This document shows positions 1 through 48,736 of a DNA stretch of 64,000 nucleotides, in pieces; the stretch's first letter is position 1; each line of letters opens with the position of its first letter. The DNA comes from Candidatus Nomurabacteria bacterium. GTDB taxonomy: Bacteria > Patescibacteriota > Patescibacteriia > HK-STAS-PATE-3. The stretch is from positions 640,001 through 704,000 of the forward strand of contig CP060223.1 in the NCBI GenBank assembly GCA_023898465.1, given 5' to 3'. The position numbers were made by a program, and so were the translations under genes. A model generated the notes under the pieces. It saw only the letters and a program-made list of their open reading frames with translations. It was not told the DNA's origin and did no database searches.

Positions 1-606
1 CGGATAGGCATTGGTGGTATTAAGGAAGTTGTTTTTGAAATGAACGGTACGAATGTATATCGCGACATGAAATATGAGGCTGGAGTACATCGAGTGCAGC
101 GTGTACCAGAAACGGAAAAGAGTGGAAGAGTGCATACCTCGACGATCACAGTAGCTGTCATGCCAGAAGCGGAGGAAAAAGATTTTGAAATTAAACCAGA
201 GGAAGTCCGTATTGAAGCAACTACAGCGGGCGGTCATGGCGGACAAAGCGTGAATACCACCTATTCAGCTATTCGATTGCATCATATCCCAACTGGATTA
301 ATAGTCGTTTGCCAAGACGAACGCTCACAAAAGCAGAATAAGGAAAAAGCCTTCCGCGTCTTGCGAGCACGCCTCTTTGCACTTGAGCAAGAACGCCGAC
401 AAAAAGAAGCTTCTGAGACTCGAAAAAGCCAGGTCGGCTCGGGTGATCGTTCAGAAAAAATTCGTACCTATAACTTCCCGCAAGATCGGGTGACTGACCA
501 TCGCATCAATCAAAACTTTTCCAACTTGAAAGTAATCATGGACGGTGGCTTTGACCCAATTATCCAAGCGATCCAAGCAAAAGCCCAGCAAGCAAACAAT
601 AGCTAA
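1..606 (+). CDS. prfA: Peptide chain release factor 1, C-terminal part; the 5' end lies outside the window. The frame is open back to nt 1.
   Basis: Translation shows the GGQ motif (AGGHGGQSVN), the RF1-type HRVQRVP segment and QDERSQ. Confidence 0.9.
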   Translation, partial: RIGIGGIKEVVFEMNGTNVYRDMKYEAGVHRVQRVPETEKSGRVHTSTITVAVMPEAEEKDFEIKPEEVRIEATTAGGHGGQSVNTTYSAIRLHHIPTGLIVVCQDERSQKQNKEKAFRVLRARLFALEQERRQKEASETRKSQVGSGDRSEKIRTYNFPQDRVTDHRINQNFSNLKVIMDGGFDPIIQAIQAKAQQANNS

Positions 607-1429
607 GCTACTAGTCCTGGGTGAGCAAAAATTATACAAAGTAGCCAAGCAGCATGCCAGACAAGATGCTGAAGCACTTTTACGCATAGTGCTGAAAAAA
701 GATGTGGCTTGGCTTTTTGTGCATAGTGAAAAAACACTGACCCAGAGACAATATCTAGCCTATCAACAAATCCTCAAGCGCCGGGCAAAAAACACCCCAC
801 TCGCCTATCTGCGTGGCTGGCAAGACTTTTACGGACGCAGATTTCATGTTGGTCCAGGCGTGCTGATTCCACGTCCAGAAACTGAAGCACTTATTGACTT
901 AGCGCTGCAGTATTTCCCAGCCGCGAAAAAACTGCAGGTGGCCGACCTAGGCAGCGGCTCCGGCTGTATAGCCCTTAGCTTAGCCTGCGAGCGACCAAGG
1001 TGGCAGATCTATGCAACCGAACTATCCTCATCAGCAATCCACTATGCCCGTAAGAATGCCAAGCATTGGCAGCATAAAAATCTCCACATCATGCAAGGAA
1101 ATATGCTTCAACCATTACGCACAACAGCGCTCGACCTTATCGTGGCAAATCTCCCCTACCTTAAACCAGGAGAGGCAAAAGACGACAGCGTGGCGAAAGA
1201 GCCGAGGAAAGCTCTCGTAGCAGGTCAGGATGGCCTAAACGCTTTTCGTGTGTTATTCCAGCAAGTACAAAAACGTCCTGATACACCTACACTGCTTTTG
1301 GAAATCGATCCGCGGCGTAAGAAGGATTTACAAAAACTCCATCGTCAACTCCTGCCACAGTATCGGGCCAAATGGAAAAAAGACCTCAGCGGCCATTGGC
1401 GAGTCCTGGTCCTCGAATCGAAAATTTAA
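545..1429 (+). CDS. prmC: Release-factor glutamine N5-methyltransferase (HemK/PrmC). The start is uncertain because the ORF overlaps the prfA 3' end.
   Basis: SAM-binding motif DLGSGSGCIAL and a substrate motif IVANLPY (NPPY variant). The position directly after prfA is conserved synteny. Confidence 0.75.
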   Translation: MALTQLSKRSKQKPSKQTIAKLLVLGEQKLYKVAKQHARQDAEALLRIVLKKDVAWLFVHSEKTLTQRQYLAYQQILKRRAKNTPLAYLRGWQDFYGRRFHVGPGVLIPRPETEALIDLALQYFPAAKKLQVADLGSGSGCIALSLACERPRWQIYATELSSSAIHYARKNAKHWQHKNLHIMQGNMLQPLRTTALDLIVANLPYLKPGEAKDDSVAKEPRKALVAGQDGLNAFRVLFQQVQKRPDTPTLLLEIDPRRKKDLQKLHRQLLPQYRAKWKKDLSGHWRVLVLESKI

Positions 1430-2571
1430 TGGTACGGGAAACCTCGTCCGTCAGGAATCACTTCAACCCAGCTTTGTCCTCGATTGAACTTCATTTCTGT
1501 CCCGTCATCAGCGTAAAAAACCGTGCGGTCAGTTCGGGTTGGTTTTTCCCAATGTCCTTCTATCACTAAACCGTCCCGGAAAAGCACGGCTTTACCCTGA
1601 CCGGTCACATTTAGGGTGAGACGTCCTTTTTCACCAATAGCAACGATTTCTGGAATCACTTGTACGACAACATTCTTTGGAGCTATTTGCACATTTTGTG
1701 CACGATCCATGTGGGGATCATTCGCATTGAAACGCAGGTACACATTACGTTCGCGATCATATTCATAGTGCGGATTATAGGTACCGCTGGAATATTGTAA
1801 GCTCAGTTCAGTAAAATTCCCTCGTGCCTCTATAGCATCCTCATCTTTAAAACGCCAGGAACGAAAATCAGGCTGCACATCTTCATATTGTAGGTCGCGC
1901 ATTGCAAAAGTGAGCTTTTCAGTATTTGTATAAAGATTATGCGGAGCATAGCCAGCGCCGCGATAACAGTATCGGGCAGCGTTTGTTAAACAATTCAAAT
2001 CACGCAAGCTAAACCCGGATAACTCTTGCAGAGCCTCGGGACTCCCTCCCGCGTGCATATACGCAGCATTATACTCTGACAACCACTCAATATAGACAGG
2101 ACGAGCACTACGTACCGGACCCAACTCTCCACTCACATTATCAGGACTAAAGACCGCCATGATACGAGTCGCTCCTCCTTCTACCAAAGTATTGTAAGCA
2201 ACTGAGGCTTTACTTAAGTTTGCATGAGGGCGGGCATCCGGATGATTATCAAACATGATGATCCACGGCAGTAGATTTGCCTTCTCTTTTGCTACCAAGA
2301 CTCCATCAAGCTGACGTGGCAATTCAGTCGCTTCAGTCTCCGGTAAATGATTTGCATCTTCGTTTGTGAAAGCAGCATTTACTGTAACAGCGTTTTCAAT
2401 TCCAATACCATTGTTAGCATCACTATTGCCAGTAAAGGCAACCGCAGCCCATAACAGGGATCCACTCAAGACCACTAAAACAGCTAAGCTAATACCAATC
2501 ACCCTGGGATTATTCCAGGGGTGGTTTTTTGGCTTAGCGTGATGTTCCTTTGTGTGTGCTTTCTCTTTCAC
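1426..2571 (-). CDS. DUF3048 (YerB-like) secreted or membrane-anchored protein, paralog 1.
   Basis: N-terminal TM anchor. Central block LVEGGATRIMAVFS...VRSARPVYIEW is paralogous to the next gene. Confidence 0.55.
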   Translation of the reverse strand: MKEKAHTKEHHAKPKNHPWNNPRVIGISLAVLVVLSGSLLWAAVAFTGNSDANNGIGIENAVTVNAAFTNEDANHLPETEATELPRQLDGVLVAKEKANLLPWIIMFDNHPDARPHANLSKASVAYNTLVEGGATRIMAVFSPDNVSGELGPVRSARPVYIEWLSEYNAAYMHAGGSPEALQELSGFSLRDLNCLTNAARYCYRGAGYAPHNLYTNTEKLTFAMRDLQYEDVQPDFRSWRFKDEDAIEARGNFTELSLQYSSGTYNPHYEYDRERNVYLRFNANDPHMDRAQNVQIAPKNVVVQVIPEIVAIGEKGRLTLNVTGQGKAVLFRDGLVIEGHWEKPTRTDRTVFYADDGTEMKFNRGQSWVEVIPDGRGFPYH

Positions 2572-2580
2572 TCAAATCCC

Positions 2581-3705
2581 CTAATAGGTGACCTGTCGAT
2601 CATCTGGAAAAACCTGTACCCAGGTTTGCCCGGCGTTAAAAATGAGTTGTTGGCCTTCTAAATCGGTAAAAATTGTGCGGGCGCTGGTGGAAGATTTTGA
2701 CCAGCGTGCCGGAATCGCCTCACCGTCGCGGAAAAGAATAGCATCACCGGATCCAACAACATCCATGCTTAAGCGGGTCGCATCAGCTAAACGTGTACCA
2801 ACATATTGCACCAGCACATTCTTTGGGCTAATTTGCTCACCAGTATTCTGATCCGTATGCGCCTCATCGCCCTGGAATCGCAGATAAGTATTTTCTTCAC
2901 GATTATAGGTGTACTTTACCTCATAACTCTTGCTCGAGTAATCAAGCACAATCGGATTTACTTCAAGTGGCCTATCTGCTAAAGCAGCTTCCTCTTTAAA
3001 CTTCCAACCTGTGTAATCCCCTGTCATTGTTGCCTCTTTATCCCGCAAAGCAAATTGCAGGAGCTCAGTGGAAGTGAAAAGTGTATGTTCGGTCGCTCGT
3101 GGAAGATTTTTTCTCCAGTAATACTGGGAGTTATAGAATTGATCAAGGTCAAACACATCTTTGGAGCGAATATCTGCCAAAGCGGTAGGACTACCACCAG
3201 CGTGAGCATATATCGCGCCTAGCTCGTTTGCCCAATCAACATAATATGGTCGAGCACTGCGTACTGGTCCTAACTCAGGAATATCATCGGTTAAGAGGTA
3301 GACTGCTAGGAATCGTGTAATGCCGCCTTCAACTAAGGCCTCGTATACCACATTTGCTTGGCCAAGACCGCTTTGGGGGCGGACAATTGAAAGATTCTCT
3401 ATCATCACGCCAACTGGTCGTGGATTTTTATTCGCAGCAACATCAAGCACGCCATCAAGCACTCGTCGAACTTTTTGCTCGCTAGGCTGATTTGTATTAG
3501 TGACAATTACTTGCCCGTCATCGCTATCATCCGTTCGAGTAAGCAAAAAACCTGCTAATGCAACGACCGCAAGCACGACAACAACAAGAGTGATCTGGAC
3601 CGGCCTTTTCTTTAACCAAAGCGTCATTTTACCCTGCGGTTTGGCTGGTACTGCTACCTGCTCTACCCCCTCTTTCATCTCTCCTTTGGTATCCCCCTTA
3701 GGCAT
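2581..3705 (-). CDS. DUF3048 (YerB-like) protein, paralog 2, arranged in tandem with paralog 1.
   Basis: TM anchor plus LVEGGITRFLAVY...VRSARPYYVDW, matching the same motifs as paralog 1. Confidence 0.55.
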   Translation of the reverse strand: MPKGDTKGEMKEGVEQVAVPAKPQGKMTLWLKKRPVQITLVVVVLAVVALAGFLLTRTDDSDDGQVIVTNTNQPSEQKVRRVLDGVLDVAANKNPRPVGVMIENLSIVRPQSGLGQANVVYEALVEGGITRFLAVYLLTDDIPELGPVRSARPYYVDWANELGAIYAHAGGSPTALADIRSKDVFDLDQFYNSQYYWRKNLPRATEHTLFTSTELLQFALRDKEATMTGDYTGWKFKEEAALADRPLEVNPIVLDYSSKSYEVKYTYNREENTYLRFQGDEAHTDQNTGEQISPKNVLVQYVGTRLADATRLSMDVVGSGDAILFRDGEAIPARWSKSSTSARTIFTDLEGQQLIFNAGQTWVQVFPDDRQVTY

Positions 3706-14811: not shown

Positions 14812-15717
14812 ATGTCCCTCACACAAGTTATAATCATCCTGGGCCCCACCGCCTCTGGTAAATCATCTCTGGCTATTGCTCTGGCTAAGCGCTTCAAAGG
14901 GGAAATTATTTCCGCTGACTCTCGCCAGGTCTATCGTGGTCTTGATATTGGGACAGGCAAAGTGACAAAGAGAGAGATGCAAAGTATCCCCCATTATCTC
15001 TTGGATATTGCTAGTCCAACACGACAATACACTGTAGCGCAATTTCAAAAAGAGACTCAAAAGACTATTCGCAAGATTACTCGAAATAATAATTTGCCTA
15101 TCATCTGCGGTGGCACTGGTTTTTATATTGATGCAGTTGTTTCTGGTACAACACTTCCAGAGGTAAGGCCGAATAAAAAACTGCGAAAGCAACTGGTCAA
15201 AAAAACACCTGCGCAACTATTTCATATGCTGCAAAAGCTTGATCCTATTCGAGCGAAAAGTATTGACCCTCAAAATCCCGTGCGTCTGATTCGAGCAATT
15301 GAAATTGCCCAAAGCCTTGGCCGCGTACCTCAACTTCACGTAAAATCTCAATACGACGCATTGAAAATTGGTATCACTCTATCAAAAGAAAAACTGCACG
15401 ATAACATCCATCGTCGTTTACACGCTCGGATGCGGCAAGGCATGCTGGCCGAAGCAAAACGTTTGCATCGTCAGGGTCTAAGCTATCGTCGCATGGAAGC
15501 ACTTGGTTTGGAGTATCGCTATCTTGCCTATCACCTGCAGGGTAAATTAACAAAAAGTGAGATGCTGCAGCAGCTGGAGAAAGCTATCCAGCACTATGCC
15601 AAACGACAGATGACCTGGTTCAAGCGGGATAAAAATATACATTGGGTGAAAAGCGCCAAAGAGGCACAGGTGCTTACCAGGCAGTTTCTCAAAAAAGAAA
15701 ACTCTCCCCAGTCCTAG
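14812..15717 (+). CDS. miaA: tRNA dimethylallyltransferase.
   Basis: P-loop GPTASGKS, DSRQVYRGLDIGTGK and LIRAIE motifs. The start is taken at MSLTQV (14812); the ORF-track start at 14692 has no support. Confidence 0.9.
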   Translation: MSLTQVIIILGPTASGKSSLAIALAKRFKGEIISADSRQVYRGLDIGTGKVTKREMQSIPHYLLDIASPTRQYTVAQFQKETQKTIRKITRNNNLPIICGGTGFYIDAVVSGTTLPEVRPNKKLRKQLVKKTPAQLFHMLQKLDPIRAKSIDPQNPVRLIRAIEIAQSLGRVPQLHVKSQYDALKIGITLSKEKLHDNIHRRLHARMRQGMLAEAKRLHRQGLSYRRMEALGLEYRYLAYHLQGKLTKSEMLQQLEKAIQHYAKRQMTWFKRDKNIHWVKSAKEAQVLTRQFLKKENSPQS

Positions 15718-15735
15718 ACCAGGGAGAGCACATGT

Positions 15736-17205
15736 TCAGTCAACCAGCACTTCCCTCCTATCAAAGTGCTGTTCGCAGTAGTGGCAGGCCAGGACTTCCC
15801 GCCCTTCTCCGTTCACATGAAAGTGAGGATAGAGCGCTGCCTCCGCATCACACCTGGTCACGCAAGCCGGGTTGGGACAAGATCCGATACCGGTGATCTC
15901 ACGCACGGTCGCCACCCGCCGCTTCGTTAGCACACCATCACGAATTTCGTTGATGGTCACTTGAGGCACCAAGATGCCGATGGCAGAGAGCTCCCTTGCA
16001 TTCAAGAAAACATCTTCCAGCCGGAGCGTATCCTTCTTGCCGCCCTGACCATTAGACCGCAGTCCCTGATCAAGTCCCACGTAGTGCGCATTTGGATCCA
16101 GACCGAGCACCGACTGAATCCTCCTGCCAAAACCTACAGGCAAATGATCAAGTACCGTCCCGTTACTGATGGGCAAGAAGCGCTGCTGCGCCAACTGCTT
16201 GCGAGCAATCGCTTCATCAGCCGACCCACTTCGCACATCCTCGATCTCCGGCCCAATCACCTCAAGAGGTGTCTCCGCACAGCGACTATGGAGCGCCTCA
16301 TTCAAAAGGGCCATCCTGATCGGCACGCCGTTCGCTGCCTGAGCGTCGATGATGACTCGTGGGTCACCGAGGACAGAAGGATGAATCTCATTGTCACCGA
16401 TCGGCAGGGGGTGCATCACCAAGACCTTAGACCCAAGCATGTCTAGGGCCGCCTGGTCAATCGTGAAACGACCGGCAACCCTGTGGTATTCGTACTCGCT
16501 CGGGAAACGCTCTCGTTGCACCCGAGTCGCATAGACCAAGTGGCACCCTGCCAGCGTCTCCAAATCACTCGCCACGGTGACATTGTACATGCCTCTCGTA
16601 TACCACCACTGCAACTGTGCTTCCGGTGCTGAGACTAGTACAATCTCCACACCCTCTAGCAGGCGCAGTGCGCGAATCAAGGAATGCACCGTGCGAGAAT
16701 ACTTGAAATCACCCACGAAACCAATCTTGAAACCATTCAGTCGACCCAAATGGCGCCGAATGGTGTAGAGATCAAGAAGGGTCTGGCTGGGATGCTCATT
16801 CGCACCGTCGCCAGCATTGAGTACGCAGAGTTGCATACCTCGCCGTGCAGCCATCTCAGCCACCCAACGAGGAGCACCCTCCACTTTTGTCCGCATCACC
16901 AGGGCTGACCCATTGTAGCCGCAGAACATTCGTGCGGTTGCCCCGAGTGTCTCCCCCTTTACCAAGGAAGTTCCCTCGGCCCCTGAGGTCAGCACATGCG
17001 GCAGACCCAGCAGACGCGCTGCCTCCTCGAATGATCCGGCGGTCCTAGTGCTCGGCTCTCCAAAGAGAAGCCGCACAACACCTTGATCGCTAACACTCGG
17101 CAAAGGCTCGCCCTTCTCCCAAGTCATTCGATAGGACTCAGCACTTGCCAAAACCCCATCGATGAAAGGAAGATCGAAATCACCAACCGAGATCACATGC
17201 TTCAC
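15736..17205 (-). CDS. pyrB: Aspartate carbamoyltransferase with the catalytic (PyrB) and regulatory (PyrI, Zn-binding Cx4C...Cx2C) chains fused in one polypeptide.
   Basis: STRT and HPSQ carbamoyltransferase motifs in the N-terminal part, and a C-terminal PyrI zinc domain (CPNPAC...CHYCE). The GTG start at 17205 is preceded by AAGGAGG; the ORF-track start at 17262 lacks an RBS. Confidence 0.8.
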   Translation of the reverse strand: MKHVISVGDFDLPFIDGVLASAESYRMTWEKGEPLPSVSDQGVVRLLFGEPSTRTAGSFEEAARLLGLPHVLTSGAEGTSLVKGETLGATARMFCGYNGSALVMRTKVEGAPRWVAEMAARRGMQLCVLNAGDGANEHPSQTLLDLYTIRRHLGRLNGFKIGFVGDFKYSRTVHSLIRALRLLEGVEIVLVSAPEAQLQWWYTRGMYNVTVASDLETLAGCHLVYATRVQRERFPSEYEYHRVAGRFTIDQAALDMLGSKVLVMHPLPIGDNEIHPSVLGDPRVIIDAQAANGVPIRMALLNEALHSRCAETPLEVIGPEIEDVRSGSADEAIARKQLAQQRFLPISNGTVLDHLPVGFGRRIQSVLGLDPNAHYVGLDQGLRSNGQGGKKDTLRLEDVFLNARELSAIGILVPQVTINEIRDGVLTKRRVATVREITGIGSCPNPACVTRCDAEAALYPHFHVNGEGREVLACHYCEQHFDRREVLVD

Positions 17206-17391
17206 TGCTTGCCTCCTTGTCAACCCAAGCAACAACTTCGATGTTAAACACAGAAGGTTCACTCCTGTGCCCTCTAGAAGAACTGAGTCCCGCGTACCGA
17301 AGCATCAAGAATGCTCCCGGGTACGAAATCTATTTAACCCACATGAACCCATATGCGACTCACTGGGTTATGCGGAGGTATGTCAACGAGC

Positions 17392-17416
17392 ACAAAAAAT
17401 CCGCCACTGGGCGGAT
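17392..17416 (-). terminator. Intrinsic terminator inside the pyrBI 5' leader, a candidate attenuator.
   Basis: ATCCGCC-actg-GGCGGAT followed by U6 on the minus strand, 187 nt upstream of the pyrBI start and about 50 nt downstream of the minus-strand promoter TTGACG-17-TACACT (17473-17501). Confidence 0.45.
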
Positions 17417-17472
17417 CAAATCAGCCTTATTGCCTCCGAAATATCTGGTACAGAGTATTTCATTCCTACGAG

Positions 17473-17501
17473 AGTGTAAACCGGACAACCTACAGCGTCA
17501 A
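17473..17501 (-). promoter_or_regulatory. Sigma70-like promoter for the pyrBI leader (TTGACG, 17-nt spacer, TACACT).
   Basis: Hexamers read on the minus strand. It sits back-to-back with the nhaA promoter. Confidence 0.4.
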
Positions 17502-17518
17502 GTGGAAAAAGTAAATGA

Positions 17519-17547
17519 TTGACATTTCCGCAAAAATGCCCTAAAAT
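17519..17547 (+). promoter_or_regulatory. Near-consensus sigma70 promoter (TTGACA, 17-nt spacer, TAAAAT) for nhaA.
   Basis: Direct match. GGGAGGG RBS lies 6 nt before the nhaA ATG. Confidence 0.55.
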
Positions 17548-21473: not shown

Positions 21474-22163
21474 TTATTTTAGCACTTCTTGTACAGTCTT
21501 CCAGACTTGCTCAGCAATATGTTCGCGATCCTGCATCACGCCATTTTTGGTACACGTTATCACCTTCCAGGAAAAACGTGCTGATAAGCGATGCGCCATT
21601 TCCCAACTCGTCTGCTGATGACGTTTATTCTTTTCCAGACTATCGACAGCCTTTCCGCCCAGGTAATTACGATGACCTTTTGCTCGTACGAGCTTACGTC
21701 CTATGGTATGCGGCACGGAGAGAAAAACAGTCAGATCAGGCTTGAGCACTCCAAGTATGTGATACTCCATTTCTTCTAACCAATGGAGATACTCCTTCTG
21801 CTCCAAAGCTGTTTGAAACTTGGCCGCCTGATGCATCATGCTTGAGGAAGTATAGCGATTACAGACAACTACTTTCCCTTGCGCTAACCATTTATTCAAC
21901 TGATCCTTTGCCTGCCAACGATCAAGTGCATACAAGAGTGAGGCAAGATAAGGATTCACTTTTAGTGTCGGTCCAAATTTGCCCTGAATGAATTGACCGA
22001 CCATGGCCCCAAAGAAACTTTCATCATAACGAGGAAAATCAGCTAAGGCAGTCTGATACCCCTGCTTTTTTAGACGCTGAATAAGGAGACCAGCTTGCGT
22101 TGCCTTGCCAGATCCATCCACCCCGTCGAGTACGATCAGTTTTCCGCTTTGCTTCTTTTTCAC
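21474..22163 (-). CDS. tmk: Thymidylate kinase.
   Basis: GKLIVLDGVDGSGKATQ P-loop and DRY motif. Confidence 0.85.
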   Translation of the reverse strand: MKKKQSGKLIVLDGVDGSGKATQAGLLIQRLKKQGYQTALADFPRYDESFFGAMVGQFIQGKFGPTLKVNPYLASLLYALDRWQAKDQLNKWLAQGKVVVCNRYTSSSMMHQAAKFQTALEQKEYLHWLEEMEYHILGVLKPDLTVFLSVPHTIGRKLVRAKGHRNYLGGKAVDSLEKNKRHQQTSWEMAHRLSARFSWKVITCTKNGVMQDREHIAEQVWKTVQEVLK

Positions 22164-22223
22164 AGGCCAAGTTTAGCATACGCAAGAGCCAAATTCCAAG
22201 TTTTTTATCCAATGATGCATCAC

Positions 22224-22252
22224 TTGAAAAAAGCTGTAAAAACACCTACAAT
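22224..22252 (+). promoter_or_regulatory. Sigma70-like promoter (TTGAAA, 17-nt spacer, TACAAT) in the divergent tmk/thyX intergenic region.
   Basis: Direct hexamer match. The ATG at 22271 follows about 12 nt after the predicted start site. Confidence 0.45.
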
Positions 22253-22270
22253 CCCCATGCTTTTCCGCTA

Positions 22271-23974
22271 ATGATTCCACCCATGCCTACATTCACACCC
22301 GAAGAAATCGAAGTGCTCAAAAAGTATATCACCGACCCCACGGGTGATGTTTTTTGTATTAAAAACATGCCTGGTCTGGTTGGAGCAGCCTATGCCCGCT
22401 ACAGCCGTGCCCGTGGCGGATTTCGAGAAGTACTACTCAAAGAATTTATTAGCGAAGGGGTGGTAGACGCCGAGCATGCGGAAGATCTTATCGAGCGTGT
22501 CTTAATTGCCTATGGCGATGATTCAGTTGGCGAATTAGAAGGCGCTCACATCTCTTTTGAAAATATCTCCATACTTGCCACGAAAGAAATTGAAGAATGT
22601 CGCATTGGTGGCTCCCCCATCGAGCAATCCACTCGTTATGTTTTCTACGACCAAAAAGATGCGCAGGGAAAATATAAATACATTGTCCCGCCTGAACTAG
22701 AAGGAAGCGATTTAGCAAATGAATATACCGAGGCCATGGACTTCCTCTTTGACACCTACTGCCGCCTCATCGAACCCATGAAGGAATTTTATAAGAAGCG
22801 ATTGCCCCTGAAGCAAGCTGAATATGATGTGCTAGGAAATGGCAATAAGCAGCACTATGAAGAGCTGGAAAATGAAAAAGACCAAAAAGCCTTTAAGACA
22901 ACTTATAACATGGATATTCGCACAAAGGCCTGCGACACTTTGCGCTATATCCTCCCACTAGCAACGACCACCAACGTCGGTATTTTTGGCAATGGCCGAT
23001 TCCATCAAAGCATGATCTCTGCTCTACTCTCCAGTCATTTTCGAGAAACCCAAAGGCTGGGCGATGCGGCTTTGCGAGAGCTGAGTAAAATAATTCCGGT
23101 CTATGTGCGGCGCGCCAAGCGAGATGAATATCGCACCACGATTGAACATGACATGGAACGCTTAGTAAGCGACTTACTCGCCAATGTGGAGGCAGAAACC
23201 CCGACTGAAGAAATACACCTTATGGACGAAGGCGAGGCGTATATTGCGAAACATTTGAACGGCCAAAGCGACCCTGCGGCGCTTCGTCAAGCTATAGCCC
23301 GATATCGTGATACTTCCCTCCTGGCCCACATCCTCTATGCCTACGCCCAGCATCCTTTGTCACAGCTAATGGATTTTGTTGAGCAACTTTCAGAAGAAAA
23401 ACGTAAAGAGATTATTGATACCTACATTGGTCAGCGCCGCACCCGTCGTGACCGCCCTTATCGTGCTTTTGAAAGCGGCTACCCCTACACCTTTGACCTG
23501 GTTACCGACTTTGGCAGCTACAAAGATCTCATGCGCCATCGCATGACCACGCAGCTACGTCAGCGCTTCTCGCCTGAGCTGGGCTTTGCCATGCCGCAAG
23601 ATATTATTGAGGCAGGCTTCAGCGAAGAGATTCAGGCTTGTCATGAGCGCTCACAAGAACTTTATCGCAAGCTAGCCAAGCAACTTCCTCAGATTGCTCA
23701 ATATGCTGCCCTGCACGGCTCTAAAGTGCGCTGGGTGATTGGGATGAACGAACGAGAGGCCTATCACCTACTTGAACTCCGCACCACTCCACAGGGCCAT
23801 CCTGCCTATCGTAAAGTCGGCCAGGAGATGCACAAACGTATTCAGGAGCGTTCAGCTTGGCGCGCCGCCCGTATGAGCTTTGTTGACCACAACAGCTACA
23901 CCTCTGCTCGCGGCGACTCAGAGGCAAAGCAGCGAGTCAAAGAACGCAAATACGAAGAAACGCACGGCGCCTAA
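22271..23974 (+). CDS. thyX: ThyX-like flavin-dependent thymidylate synthase, unusually long (about 567 aa, possibly a duplicated domain).
   Basis: RHR...S-type motif (MRHRMTTQLRQRFS) in the C-terminal half and a ThyX-like N-terminal half. The ORF-track start at 22100 would overlap the tmk start, so the in-frame ATG at 22271 is taken instead. Confidence 0.5.
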   Translation: MIPPMPTFTPEEIEVLKKYITDPTGDVFCIKNMPGLVGAAYARYSRARGGFREVLLKEFISEGVVDAEHAEDLIERVLIAYGDDSVGELEGAHISFENISILATKEIEECRIGGSPIEQSTRYVFYDQKDAQGKYKYIVPPELEGSDLANEYTEAMDFLFDTYCRLIEPMKEFYKKRLPLKQAEYDVLGNGNKQHYEELENEKDQKAFKTTYNMDIRTKACDTLRYILPLATTTNVGIFGNGRFHQSMISALLSSHFRETQRLGDAALRELSKIIPVYVRRAKRDEYRTTIEHDMERLVSDLLANVEAETPTEEIHLMDEGEAYIAKHLNGQSDPAALRQAIARYRDTSLLAHILYAYAQHPLSQLMDFVEQLSEEKRKEIIDTYIGQRRTRRDRPYRAFESGYPYTFDLVTDFGSYKDLMRHRMTTQLRQRFSPELGFAMPQDIIEAGFSEEIQACHERSQELYRKLAKQLPQIAQYAALHGSKVRWVIGMNEREAYHLLELRTTPQGHPAYRKVGQEMHKRIQERSAWRAARMSFVDHNSYTSARGDSEAKQRVKERKYEETHGA

Positions 23975-26039: not shown

Positions 26040-26516
26040 TTATTTTTCCTCTTTAGCTAATTGACTACGATACTGTCTATATTTCACTCCAGCAGCATCA
26101 AGTATGCGGCGAGAAGCAACCCAAACCGGCCGGTCGTGATTGCGATCGCTCTCAAATACCACTTCCTTAATTCCTGTTTGCACTATTGTTTTAGCGCATT
26201 CATTGCATGGGAAAAGTAAGCAGTAGAGAATTCCACCCTTGGTGCTCTGATTTGCGTTGTAGATAGCGTTCTCCTCAGCGTGGACCACATAGGTATTTTT
26301 CACGTTGAGAAAATCACCTTCGCTATCCCAAGGGAAATCGTGCTCAGTCCCCCGCGGCCAGCCATTATAGCCCATACCGACGATGACGTTGTCTTGATTT
26401 ACAATCACCGCTCCGGTCTGGGTAGACGGATCCTTGGAGCGCTGGCTAATCACATGCGCCATCTGCATCAGGCATTCGTCCCAGGAAAGATAGTTTTCTC
26501 GTGGAGGACGCGCCAT
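26040..26516 (-). CDS. dCMP deaminase (ComEB-type).
   Basis: HAEENAI and PCNECAK zinc-binding motifs. Confidence 0.8.
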   Translation of the reverse strand: MARPPRENYLSWDECLMQMAHVISQRSKDPSTQTGAVIVNQDNVIVGMGYNGWPRGTEHDFPWDSEGDFLNVKNTYVVHAEENAIYNANQSTKGGILYCLLFPCNECAKTIVQTGIKEVVFESDRNHDRPVWVASRRILDAAGVKYRQYRSQLAKEEK

Positions 26517-29545: not shown

Positions 29546-30538
29546 TCAAGTAGCCCTCTCTCGTATGCCAGTCCCTTCCCCTATCCATGTCACGAGCAGG
29601 TGTAAGGCAAAACCTAAGGCCAGCATAGTAAACATGTGCGAGAGTGAAGGAAGATACACAAAAGCGCCAAAGGCTATGCCTCCCACGATGTAATCAATCT
29701 GATCAAAGGGAAACCAGGACTGACCTGGGGCAATGTTCACTCGACGCTTAAAAAAGCTCTTAAGCAGATCGCCAGCTAGAGCCCCGAAGCCGAGTAAAGC
29801 TCCAAAGGAGAGACTCTGCGAGGTATAAGAAAAAAGGCTAATATCCTGCACCCAAGTATACTTGAGGTAAAGAAAGCGCTGCAGCCAAAATGTCAGCACA
29901 GCTCCAAGCACGCCGGCCAATATCCCTCGGTAGGTTTTATGGCTGCCGAACAAAGGCTGGCCATGAAAGTAGGCGCCAAAATCAACTGGCCAATTAGAAC
30001 GTGGGAAAAGCTTGACCGCAAAGATGGGAAACATATTTGCCACACCCATGGGTAAAAGCAACCAAAAACTGCTGAGTATGAGCGTGAGTGGATTTGCCTC
30101 AACATGCAGGAGTAGGGCGAGTAAAAAGATGAACCTGCCAGGCAAGGCAATGCTTTTGTGAAAGAAAATACCTACCAAAGAAAGAAGGGTGTTCACACAC
30201 CAGAGTGCAGCCCAAAATACGCCGAGTGGTAAGAAGATAACTGCCTCGGAAAAACGATCAAGGCCAATATCCACCAGCCAGCCATGTTGACTCCCCCGTT
30301 GATACTGTCGAGCCACAGCTCCGTCCAGCCAATCGAGAAAGAGGATAAAGATGAGCAGAGCGATAGTCCAAGCTCGACTGATGCTAAAGACTGGTATAAC
30401 AAACAAGCTTAAGCAGAAACCTACTAAGCTGATAGCATCGGGCGAAACATTTGGTAAGCGAAAAATCCAGAGCCGGCGAATCCAGGCACGGTATGTCTGC
30501 ACCCAAGTAAATCGCTGTGGGGCAGTCTGACTCTCCAT
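29546..30538 (-). CDS. Fusion protein with an N-terminal CDP-alcohol phosphatidyltransferase and a C-terminal CarS-like (DUF46) CTP-dependent cytidylyltransferase.
   Basis: N-terminal half has the exact D-G-x2-A-R-x8-G-x3-D-x3-D motif (DGAVARQYQRGSQHGWLVDIGLD). C-terminal half has GSHKTYRG and DLLKSFFKRRVNI...FDQID, which match CDP-archaeol synthase family motifs. Confidence 0.65.
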   Translation of the reverse strand: MESQTAPQRFTWVQTYRAWIRRLWIFRLPNVSPDAISLVGFCLSLFVIPVFSISRAWTIALLIFILFLDWLDGAVARQYQRGSQHGWLVDIGLDRFSEAVIFLPLGVFWAALWCVNTLLSLVGIFFHKSIALPGRFIFLLALLLHVEANPLTLILSSFWLLLPMGVANMFPIFAVKLFPRSNWPVDFGAYFHGQPLFGSHKTYRGILAGVLGAVLTFWLQRFLYLKYTWVQDISLFSYTSQSLSFGALLGFGALAGDLLKSFFKRRVNIAPGQSWFPFDQIDYIVGGIAFGAFVYLPSLSHMFTMLALGFALHLLVTWIGEGTGIRERAT

Positions 30539-48000: not shown

Positions 48001-48736
48001 GATCGCTCTCTTCTTCATAGGCGCCCCAAATAAGATAGGCCGCTGCAATAGTACCTGGTACGTCGAGATTGCTTATCACACCACTTCCGTCATCTTCTAA
48101 TCCAACTCCTGCGCTGGCAACCGCATAGCCGGCAGTTTGACCCTGCGAACAAGCTGTTTGAATCGAGAAAAGGTTTTCTAAACCACCGGTAGTACGCCAG
48201 TTACCAAAATCAATCTCCGTGGTCTGACCCGCCGTAACATGTACGTTTTCTGTCACATTACCGGTTGTCACTTCCCAATCAGGAAGCTGGGTTTCTGTGA
48301 CGGTATAGTCTCCGGCATGCAGGTGAGGTACATAAAAACCGGATTCTCCACTCGTATCACCCTCGGCCACAATCTGGTCCTGCATATCACGCACCACAAA
48401 GTGCCAATCGCTCAGCCATGGGTCAGTGTCATGGGCGGTATTACGGATACCGTTACCATTATCGTCATAAAACTTCCGAATGCGGAGGTTGCCAAAGGTA
48501 AGCGCTGAATCGTCTACATTTGTACCCAGGCTAAGGCTTGTACCGCCCTCCTGAGAGTTATCCACAGCTTGAACTGGCAGCTCAGCTGCTTGGGCAGCCA
48601 GCACCGTTCCTAGGCCGGTAGTCTGGAGCACCAAACTAAAGACTGCCACGACGCTCAATAGATTGAATAAGCGCCGACGGACTCCCTTGCTAAGACCCCC
48701 CTGATATTCCCCCCTGAATAGTGATAACGTAGGCAT
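45029..48736 (-). CDS. Large (1235-aa) cell-surface protein with SdrD-B-like/Cna-B-type repeats and DUF11 repeats, and a C-terminal LAxTG sortase-type anchor.
   Basis: Signal peptide. Repeated DxDxDG calcium-type motifs (DLNGDGVRQVGE..., DVNGNGTWDEDE...). Two DUF11-like repeats. C-terminus LADTG, hydrophobic helix, KRR tail. AGAGGAG RBS. Confidence 0.8.
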   Translation of the reverse strand: MPTLSLFRGEYQGGLSKGVRRRLFNLLSVVAVFSLVLQTTGLGTVLAAQAAELPVQAVDNSQEGGTSLSLGTNVDDSALTFGNLRIRKFYDDNGNGIRNTAHDTDPWLSDWHFVVRDMQDQIVAEGDTSGESGFYVPHLHAGDYTVTETQLPDWEVTTGNVTENVHVTAGQTTEIDFGNWRTTGGLENLFSIQTACSQGQTAGYAVASAGVGLEDDGSGVISNLDVPGTIAAAYLIWGAYEEESDPSFVFNGHAVNGTEYREALDAVAYVANVSSYVSTGTHSYTVENSSPYTMLGASLYVVYASEDVDASLVTWLGGVDTAYWNRPYFPKGPDTEVYSYSFAPVDYDRQATLTLSVGGGDHTNPNRGDALWVKSATGAVPTNLVDQAGATELLHNLLTSHEGPEWDHPTVTVTIPANATYFAYQIESPEDDNGESFILFASSLTAPLDCPTGDLTVNKKVDENGDGIFEGGNVRANELGFQWSDITETKMRDMGTPNETGVGPHQITETQLPGWHFVGWYDDKNISDYSCTNPQGTTLPVPVEVFEDQETSITLCNARDFTTIDFDKVVVGGGPSTDQDWTFHVEGLGDFTEASAPVSVPTMTQYMVTETSGSYDNLYTLTNASGICSYANGVITLDTGRQGGTCVLENTRNTGEITGVKYYDHNANGVRDDGDEGIEGVTIQLSNGQSKVSASDGSFSFANLPTGTYEVNEVLPDAWMNTTPLSVEVEVVQGEPAYVEFGNTRSLTIAGTKWNDLNGDGVRQVGEPGIQGWTINLWDDGEDGPGNIIATTQTAADGSYAFTDLEPGTYWVNEALVDGWMQTSEPVVIGPLELGENTTLTGNDFGNFQLGSINGAKWHDVNGNGTWDEDESGLANWQINLWEDEDGQPGAIIADTLTDADGNYSFTDLGPGTYWLSETLQDGWEQTSSPITLGPIVMTSGLVSNANNFGNKLLSPELSIVKSVNVDTFVNPGATVTYTVVVKNIGQSTAVNVVMTDQLPAGFIFVDTGLSVRSFPLGDLAANESMTVTYDVIVSTSQAAGFYDNVATADADNTDPVADEATVEVRLGSVLGVSTEPLLLLTKSVNTNEAKPGDYLTYTLKVTNAGDGIALNVRVTDILPEGFTFADSGLTERVWTLGSMFTDDTRTITYEVKVADNAASGNYLNVAKAVADNYGEVRASQNVVVKRGQVLGASTLADTGSGWGDVAAFGLGMMAIISGFVVLFDKRRFSMPLNR

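Follow-up and report, generated by a model that had tools for sequence, protein, structure and literature searches.

A putative minimal leader-peptide attenuator upstream of the fused pyrBI gene in Patescibacteria

In enteric bacteria the pyrBI operon is controlled by transcription attenuation, and read-through into the structural genes rises when UTP is low. Here we describe a leader element of related layout on the minus strand of a 64,000-nucleotide (nt) stretch, hereafter the window, of a Candidatus Nomurabacteria genome (assembly GCA_023898465.1, contig CP060223.1, positions 640,001 to 704,000), where it precedes a fused pyrB-pyrI gene (pyrBI). In the order of transcription it comprises a promoter-like site, a 15-codon open reading frame (ORF) and a terminator-like hairpin overlapped by the stop codon of that ORF (Table 1). 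The element is most likely a minimal leader-peptide attenuator of the fused pyrBI, devoid of a Shine-Dalgarno (SD) sequence and conserved in a clade of Patescibacteria; its principle would be a known one, carried out by a different build.

The well-known E. coli pyrBI mechanism served as the reference, together with PMC4824070 and PMC6245113, and the pyrBI leaders of five genera, Leclercia, Serratia, Pectobacterium, Erwinia and Vibrio, were read as controls. In E. coli a start region reading TATAAT-N6-AATTTG mediates UTP-dependent reiterative transcription (PMC6245113), and termination falls from ~90% to <10% when the stop codon stands 5 bp instead of 28 bp ahead of a terminator (PMC4824070). 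Terminators lying no more than 100 bp into a coding region are efficient, ribosomes not having caught up unless a pause couples them (PMC4824070). Outside the enteric systems, the mycobacterial 'Cys ribulon' uses a leaderless short polycysteine ORF as a cis sensor for downstream genes (bioRxiv 10.1101/834739).

Anatomy of the leader and its relation to described attenuators

The promoter-like site scores 9 of 12 with the consensus scanner, and the transcription start is predicted at ~17467-17465, which would leave a 5' untranslated region (UTR) of 2-4 nt. The ATG of the leader ORF (17463-17461) stands 9 nt past the -10 hexamer, the window reading TACACT-ctcgtagga-ATG, and no SD sequence was found 5' of it on reading the window sequence. 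The ORF ends with a TGA at 17418-17416. The terminator core, ATCCGCC-cagt-GGCGGAT, has 7 bp (17416-17399) and folds at -10.6 kcal/mol; the stem grows to 8 pairs (17417-17398) if the G and the A of the UGA pair with the first U's, and the consensus scanner reports the site with 8 pairs, 5 GC and a loop of 4. The T-run covers 17399-17394 and is followed by G-T, so that 5 U's lie beyond the 7-bp stem. From the end of the U-run to the pyrBI GTG the distance is 188 nt, and the consensus scanner found no second promoter between the terminator and pyrBI in the window.

A preliminary description of this DNA had named the minus-strand TTGACG-17-TACACT promoter, the ATG at 17463 opening a 15-codon ORF and the overlap of its stop codon with a GC-rich hairpin, and all three are indeed present. 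Its 'hairpin + U6' stands as a hairpin with a U-run, the count of 6 having included one T twice, and the 187 nt that it gave from there to the GTG is replaced by the distance measured above. The mRNA that it called leaderless is better described as one with a predicted 5' UTR of 0-5 nt and no SD sequence.

Table 1. Features of the pyrBI leader region and of its flanks, in window coordinates
Feature	Position	Strand	Basis or remark
-35 hexamer TTGACG	17496..17501	(-)	direct reading and consensus scanner
-10 hexamer TACACT	17473..17478	(-)	17-nt spacer from -35; direct reading and consensus scanner
Leader ORF, ATG + 14 sense codons (MKYSVPDISEAIRLI) + UGA	17416..17463	(-)	direct reading
GGAGG(CAA) motif inside leader ORF	17433..17437	(-)	14 nt before stop; direct reading, comparison
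Intrinsic-terminator stem-loop GATCCGCC-cagt-GGCGGATT	17398..17417	(-)	scanner, folding, comparison
Terminator U-run TTTTTTGT	17392..17399	(-)	first T also pairs in stem; direct reading
Post-terminator motif (CG)TTGACA	17381..17386	(-)	direct reading, comparison
Lineage-specific spacer, ~155 nt	17224..17380	(-)	three predicted hairpins; no counterpart in relatives
Second TTGACA copy, fused to pyrBI SD (TTGACAAGGAGG)	17212..17223	(-)	direct reading
Fused pyrB-pyrI, 489 aa, GTG start	15736..17205	(-)	OTCace_N, OTCace, PyrI, PyrI_C (Pfam)
Strong intrinsic terminator, pyrBI 3' end	15701..15729	(-)	consensus scanner
Divergent promoter-like site TTGACA-17-TAAAAT for nhaA	17519..17547	(+)	back to back with leader promoter; scanner
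nhaA	17599-18738	(+)	upstream neighbour of leader

The gene downstream encodes USN53172.1, from a Candidatus Nomurabacteria metagenome-assembled genome (MAG) of the Patescibacteria, where it lies on a contig of 1.08 Mb. A single 489-aa chain carries all four domains of aspartate carbamoyltransferase (ATCase), and the gene is therefore a fused pyrB-pyrI. The motifs STRT and HPxQ and four zinc cysteines are invariant in the PyrBI alignment. Its start, the GTG at 17205, is backed by ten homologues, all beginning MKH, and is preceded by an SD sequence AAGGAGG at 17218-17212.

With the pyrL attenuator of gamma-proteobacteria the element shares the gene pair that follows, coding for the catalytic and the regulatory chain of ATCase, an intrinsic terminator between promoter and ATCase gene (here the 8-pair stem with its U-run, and likewise in seven relatives) and, as predicted, a short non-conserved ORF that would place a ribosome on the 5' arm of the terminator. 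As in the window, the stop codon lies at the base of the stem in the Vibrio leaders L020 and L080, whereas the leaders of Leclercia (L064) and Serratia (L038) carry their UGA in the hairpin loop. The controls have an SD-led ORF (GGAG-N5-10-ATG) of 30-44 codons, in contrast to the SD-less 15 codons of the window (14-16 in relatives). Furthermore, the pyrimidine fraction of the ORF amounts to 0.24-0.51 in the window group as against 0.54-0.60 in the gamma-proteobacterial controls, that of its last 30 nt to 0.20-0.53 as against 0.63-0.67, and the longest T-run of the window-group leaders is 1-4, the pause hairpin and U-tract of pyrL being absent. The controls also read TATAAT-N6-AATTTG, while the window, with nine other nucleotides between its -10 hexamer and the ATG, lacks an A/G-TTT start. 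Sequence similarity to pyrL is absent, the host belongs to the Patescibacteria and the enzyme is a single fused chain. Judged by its sequence, the window element would work like a pyrL attenuator but is outside that family, and the resemblance is one of logic only.

Three other types of leader invite comparison. The trp and his attenuators share a short leader ORF before an intrinsic terminator and an outcome set by the position of the ribosome relative to RNA polymerase; they differ in their tandem regulatory codons, of which the window group has none (its eight peptides share no enriched residue), and in a mutually exclusive antiterminator hairpin, which folding does not give for the window leader. 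Moreover, the translating ribosome is here predicted to prevent, and not to promote, termination. The mycobacterial Cys ORF is likewise a sensory short ORF without SD sequence at the 5' end of its transcript (the start being predicted for the window), but there stalling at Cys codons unmasks a ribosome-binding site and the control is translational, whereas the window leader has no Cys run and no codon bias, its controlled structure would be an intrinsic terminator and the ribosome position that counts would be the stop codon. The PyrR attenuators of Bacillus and others (RF00515) also place a terminator in the leader of a pyrimidine gene. They differ by an antiterminator/anti-antiterminator pair that is absent from the window leader, and no Rfam match to RF00515 or its PyrR binding loop was obtained for the window (E up to 10) or the seven relatives (E up to 1). 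The Rfam searches of these eight sequences gave only chance matches, SNORD57 (16 bits) and Termite-leu (23 bits). A riboswitch was considered and rejected: it too found no Rfam match, the leader of 45-50 nt folds at -3 to -10 kcal/mol and the structure shared between loci does not exceed a stem of 3-4 bp.

Conservation of the layout in relatives

A protein search returned a single cluster with 66% identity, along with roughly a dozen fused homologues in the 40-50% range, and the DNA surrounding these hits was fetched. A further locus from a Patescibacteria MAG, L005, came from a genome scan with the PyrBI alignment. The genome and metagenome scans were saturated by generic ATCase motifs, mostly from Bacteroidota and gamma-proteobacteria; L005 was the sole close relative among their hits and the rest served as controls. 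The four-part layout of the leader is kept at seven fused-pyrBI loci, all on Patescibacteria MAGs and metagenome contigs, whose PyrBI identity to the window is 66% (L001), 49% (L165), 46% (L005), 47-48% (L168, L169 and L170) and 42% (L171). A sigma-70-type promoter of the form TTGAC(N)-17-TA(NNN)T, with the same 17-nt spacer, is found in six of them, namely all except L171. The leader ATG follows the -10 hexamer by 7-11 nt in seven loci and by 14 nt in L171, and the leader ORF has 14-16 codons in all seven relatives. At each of the eight loci, the window included, the stop codon overlaps the stem by 1-2 nt or ends at most 5 nt before it, and the terminators of the relatives consist of a GC-rich hairpin followed by 4-8 U's.

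This layout is kept while the sequences that compose it have changed. The stem arms have diverged (AUCCGCC, CACCGCC, AUUCCCC, CCCCG, CCCCC, UCCCCG, AAUCCC), with every pair standard. The predicted leader peptides, MKYSVPDISEAIRLI in the window, MPHTRSKTDSGPTAV in L001, MPHTHHRPKLNQHG in L165, MKRKRNKKMCGGKSLD in L005, MENSNQCKKKEAKKPE in L168, MVTNRKDKSSGGIIKV in L169, MNNHGMKQVNRRAKA in L170 and MTFRQGRYFYSKPL in L171, cannot be aligned between groups, and similarity is confined to the L001/L165 pair.

In the relatives the distance from the leader stop to the pyrBI start is short, 60-72 nt in L001, L005 and L165 and 60-101 nt over all seven, and in most of them a gap of about 35-85 nt separates the terminator from the gene start. 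No second promoter could be recognised between leader stop and pyrBI in L001, L005 and L165. The terminator mostly lies too near pyrBI to leave space for a second promoter that could be recognised, so that pyrBI is probably transcribed by read-through, and the hairpin would therefore be a control point and not the end of a gene. A more distant fused pyrBI, L161 (39% identity; leader region ~2790-3000), reads TATACT-atgtttgat-ATG and has a leader ORF of 21-24 codons that ends with a UAG in the hairpin loop of its terminator (10-14 bp); from its layout, this leader is a variant of the same stop-on-hairpin idea.

Taken singly, the motifs occur at the rate of chance: per 20 kb the window scan gave 26 promoter-like sites, with 22.9 expected from shuffled sequence, and 21 terminator-like sites, with 21.0 expected. 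The significance therefore rests on their combination and on its conservation in relatives. The placement of the stop codon at the stem was assessed on dinucleotide shuffles in which the ATG was held fixed and the first in-frame stop was scored, and the probability of this stop landing at the stem was 0.03-0.11 per locus. The product over the eight loci, 8e-10, is an upper bound on the significance because the loci are related; counting ~4 independent lineages, the chance of such placement is of the order of 1e-4 to 1e-5. The same stop-at-stem-base geometry was seen in 7 of 109 control ATCase loci, five of the seven being gamma-proteobacterial pyrBI leaders of known attenuator type. A wider control scan found a leader ORF and a terminator before the ATCase genes of 23 of 115 loci, mostly of Vibrio, Photobacterium and Enterobacterales but also of Propionigenium and some Bacteroidota. 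This suggests that such arrangements recur before ATCase genes in several phyla, which lowers the novelty of the principle. One distant ATCase locus, L159 (~2750-3000), was seen to carry an SD-led, U-rich leader ORF of 44 codons ending inside a long hairpin. With L161 and L159 added, control of ATCase genes by leader peptides seems to have a recurrent place in several lineages.

Proposed mechanism and alternative explanations

The leader element is likely to be an attenuator of some kind. That it is operated by a ribosome is a reasonably probable but less secure proposition, and we propose with similar reserve that it controls transcription of the fused pyrBI by ribosome occlusion of the terminator. 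The supply of pyrimidine nucleoside triphosphates, UTP or CTP, as its signal is a tentative suggestion, and one that we hold with some doubt.

In the proposed sequence of events, transcription would start 2-4 nt before the SD-less AUG, and the RNA would bear the 15-codon ORF with its UGA overlapping the first terminator pairs. By default RNA polymerase would outrun the first ribosome over the ~80-nt leader, the hairpin would form and transcription would end before pyrBI; the efficiency of early terminators without coupling (PMC4824070) makes termination the expected default in an 80-nt leader, so that read-through would need a slowed polymerase. Were the polymerase slowed, the likely sites being the C-rich 5' arm and the U-run, a ribosome could arrive at the UGA in time. 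When the stop codon occupies the A site, the footprint of the ribosome extends about 10 nt past that codon and would hence occlude the whole 5' arm of 7-8 nt, in which case no hairpin would form and the polymerase would read through into pyrBI. The rare UGA, decoded by release factor 2 (RF2) only, would probably prolong the parking of the ribosome. If the slowing depends on pyrimidines, the supply of UTP and CTP could be read through the speed of the polymerase. We infer the start site, the translation of the leader ORF, the direction of the regulation and the signal.

Folding of the leaders is in line with direct occlusion. The terminator is the dominant structure, with -7 to -14 kcal/mol for the stem alone, and no stable or conserved antiterminator was found, pairing of the leader with the 5' arm gaining at most 3.5 kcal/mol. 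With no stable competing structure predicted, the simplest account of how the hairpin would be overcome is steric occlusion by the ribosome. The preliminary description had likewise assumed that a ribosome finishing the leader peptide would occlude the terminator, and the geometry agrees with that assumption in the light of the Vibrio pyrBI controls and of the E. coli stop-distance data (PMC4824070). The match that it saw to the enterobacterial pyrBI logic extends to the terminator and the ribosome on its 5' arm but not to the SD-led ORF, the U-rich pause or the AATTTG start. Both features whose loss in relatives it had taken to speak against the proposal, the hairpin and the leader ORF, are kept in the seven relatives.

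The composition of the leaders bears on the signal. The leader ORFs are poor in pyrimidines: those of L005 and L168-L170 have a pyrimidine fraction of 0.24-0.29, the remaining ones of 0.44-0.51; the U content of the leader is 10-18% in six of the eight, 29% in the window and 36% in L171. The first stretches that demand CTP or UTP after the leader ORF are the C-rich 5' arm and the U-run. We regard it as a rather unlikely extension of the proposal that the element is a minimal 'race' sensor for pyrimidine nucleotides, evolved independently in Patescibacteria. In such a sensor a near-leaderless, pyrimidine-poor ORF would leave the polymerase unhindered as far as the C-rich 5' arm and the U-run, and a rare UGA would hold the ribosome at the foot of the hairpin for long enough to prevent termination.

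The stop codon itself is unusual. UGA ends seven of the eight leader ORFs (window, L001, L165, L005, L169, L170 and L171). Among the long ORFs of the window it ends 3 of 44, against 32 for TAA and 9 for TAG, and in L005 and L168-L171 it ends none of 14. UGA is also the leader stop of the enteric controls L064 and L038. The release factor gene at 1-606, which is followed by prmC, carries the RF1 signature RVQRVPETE...GGQ (PET motif); it is the sole release factor gene in the window, and no RF2 gene was found there. A rare UGA, read by RF2 only, would probably prolong the stay of the ribosome on the foot of the hairpin, which we offer as a lead and not as a result. Through this bias one could probe in a simple way how attenuator output depends on the time that a ribosome spends at the stop codon.

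Several observations weigh against a ribosome-operated attenuator that senses pyrimidines. The leaders lack a U-rich pause tract, which removes the UTP-sensing part of the enteric model and makes the signal a guess. When the window was scanned for long genes whose start codon adjoins a promoter, none turned up, and leaderless translation is thus without independent support in this genome; the predicted 5' UTR of 2-5 nt, moreover, is not strictly leaderless. In seven loci the 7-11 nt between -10 hexamer and ATG predict a UTR of 0-5 nt. At 9 of 12 the promoter match does not by itself exceed chance, and in L171 the assignment of the leader promoter is ambiguous. The loci L002, L166 and L167, a subgroup of their own, are without the element and have a plain UTR of 30-55 nt; in L172 pyrBI is operon-internal, and in L173 the leader hairpin is present while the ORF is absent. 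Lastly, a nucleotide motif, GGAGGCAA..GCCUGA, recurs in six of the eight leaders and is a possible factor-binding site.

This motif comprises the GGAGG inside the leader ORF, which is missing from L001 and L165 and elsewhere precedes the stop by 9-21 nt, in many cases in the form GGAGGCAA..(A)AGCCUGA; in L005, L168 and L170 folding predicts an AGGC/GCCU stem of 3-4 bp. The internal GGAGG may be an SD-like pause element for ribosome or polymerase, an anchor, one half of a small hairpin or a binding site. An alternative start after it was considered and rejected, only a CUG or distant UUG/GUG codons being available in a frame that is not conserved.

Taken as a binding site, the motif leads to the first alternative, in which the terminator would be controlled by a trans-acting factor, either an RNA-binding protein or a small ligand, recognising GGAGGCAA...GCCUGA, and the ORF would be untranslated or irrelevant. 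Such a factor would account for the fact that the nucleotides of GGAGG(CAA) and (A)AGCCUGA are kept in six of eight leaders while the peptide is not, and the small AGGC/GCCU stem fits it as well; without an SD sequence, translation of the leader is a prediction, and the UGA could belong to the RNA motif. We nevertheless consider control by a factor unlikely, since L001 and L165, which do not have the motif, retain the full layout from ATG and ORF to stop and terminator, and since the reading frame is kept in all eight leaders although the motif shifts frame in L168. In that leader the conserved CCUGA does not fall in the reading frame, and the ORF is closed by another codon, a UAG that is in frame, which argues that the reading frame, and not merely the motif, is kept. 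Furthermore, the window and its relatives match none of the Rfam families, that of PyrR among them, at E up to 1-10, and the 45-nt leader is weakly structured (-3 to -10 kcal/mol).

The second alternative, to which we give little credence, is that the element is a separate small unit, either a micropeptide gene or a small RNA of ~75 nt, or else a constitutive leaky terminator that damps pyrBI without sensing. It does possess its own promoter and terminator, and in other bacteria the short RNAs released by attenuators are reported to be capable of acting in trans (PMC6614838). However, a functional micropeptide is unlikely as the peptide sequence is not conserved, most relatives lack a recognisable promoter between terminator and pyrBI, so that the unit is not independent of pyrBI, and a passive damper would explain neither why the stop lies so exactly at the base of the stem nor why UGA predominates. 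Nor does the hairpin terminate the upstream gene: nhaA is transcribed divergently from its own strong promoter-like site. The ends of pyrBI and nhaA, both canonical hairpin-plus-U terminators, indicate that the organism uses such signals.

A mere coincidence, or coding on the (+) strand by a 93-aa ORF (17241-17522), is highly improbable: single promoter-like and terminator-like matches do occur at the shuffled-sequence rate and the ORF was called as a gene in the Logan assembly, but the layout recurs in seven relatives as against 7 of 109 controls, five of these of known attenuator type, and the 93-aa product, very probably spurious, has no homologue beyond the same species among 5.8 billion proteins and crosses a spacer that the relatives do not have.

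Sequence context and significance

The leader element, for which we retain a ribosome-operated attenuator as the preferred reading, is followed in the window by lineage-specific sequence. A GTTCRTTGACAA-like motif stands a few nt past the terminator U-run in L001, L165, L005, L168, L169 and L170; no -10 hexamer follows the post-terminator TTGACA in the window or in any relative. In the window the second TTGACA copy (17218-17223) directly adjoins the pyrBI SD sequence, and ~155 nt of species-specific sequence separate the two copies, as if inserted into the motif. The fold of this spacer is not significant (z-score -1.3), and BLAST of the 190-nt spacer matched only copies from the same species. 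A dispersed repeat or mobile element was rejected, the hairpin sequence being single-copy in the window and the spacer matching its own species only.

A perfect DnaA-box 9-mer, TGTGGATAA (reverse complement TTATCCACA), was observed just 5' of the pyrBI leader in six relatives. It lies 8-12 nt 5' of the -35 hexamer in L005 (~905-913), L168, L169 and L170, between the promoter-like site and the leader ATG in L171, and at ~1001-1009 in L173; the window, L001 and L165 have no counterpart at that place. Within the window DnaA-box matches occur at chance rate, with one perfect copy at 48558-48566. DnaA or another factor may act on pyrBI in the subclade that carries the box.

Regarding the protein, the fused PyrB-PyrI homologues at 37-66% identity include one from Patescibacteria and one from Syntrophomonadaceae, and among the next ones, at 33-36%, are proteins whose names assign them to Woesearchaeota (DPANN archaea). 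Ultra-small bacteria and archaea may thus have the fused form in common. Other pyrimidine nucleotide genes lie near pyrBI, namely a thymidylate kinase, a ThyX homologue and a dCMP/cytidine deaminase (21474-22163 (-), 22100-23974 (+), 26040-26516 (-)). With 624 aa and two Thy1 stretches the ThyX ORF is of unusual length, but its listed start may be too far upstream. The window further holds two tandem DUF3048 paralogues and a protein joining a CDP-alcohol phosphatidyltransferase domain to a CarS-like (CDP-archaeol synthase) domain (1426-3705 (-) and 29546-30538 (-)).

Cis-regulatory RNA control is hardly described in Patescibacteria, also known as the CPR (Candidate Phyla Radiation), and our literature search found no paper joining the CPR with leader peptides or attenuators. 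Gene callers mis-annotate such a leader, as the spurious antisense 93-aa ORF placed over it illustrates. A conserved attenuator at this position, if true, would mean that these reduced organisms regulate an enzyme of de novo pyrimidine synthesis and do not rely on salvage alone, and that Patescibacteria couple translation to transcription. The logic of enteric pyrBI would then have been reached again by a smaller design, with no SD sequence, 15 codons and no pause tract. Should the 'race' sensor hold, it would demonstrate that ultra-small symbionts have functional coupling of translation to transcription, initiate on leaderless messages and regulate their de novo pyrimidine synthesis, and the identity of a stop codon would become a tuning element of an attenuator.

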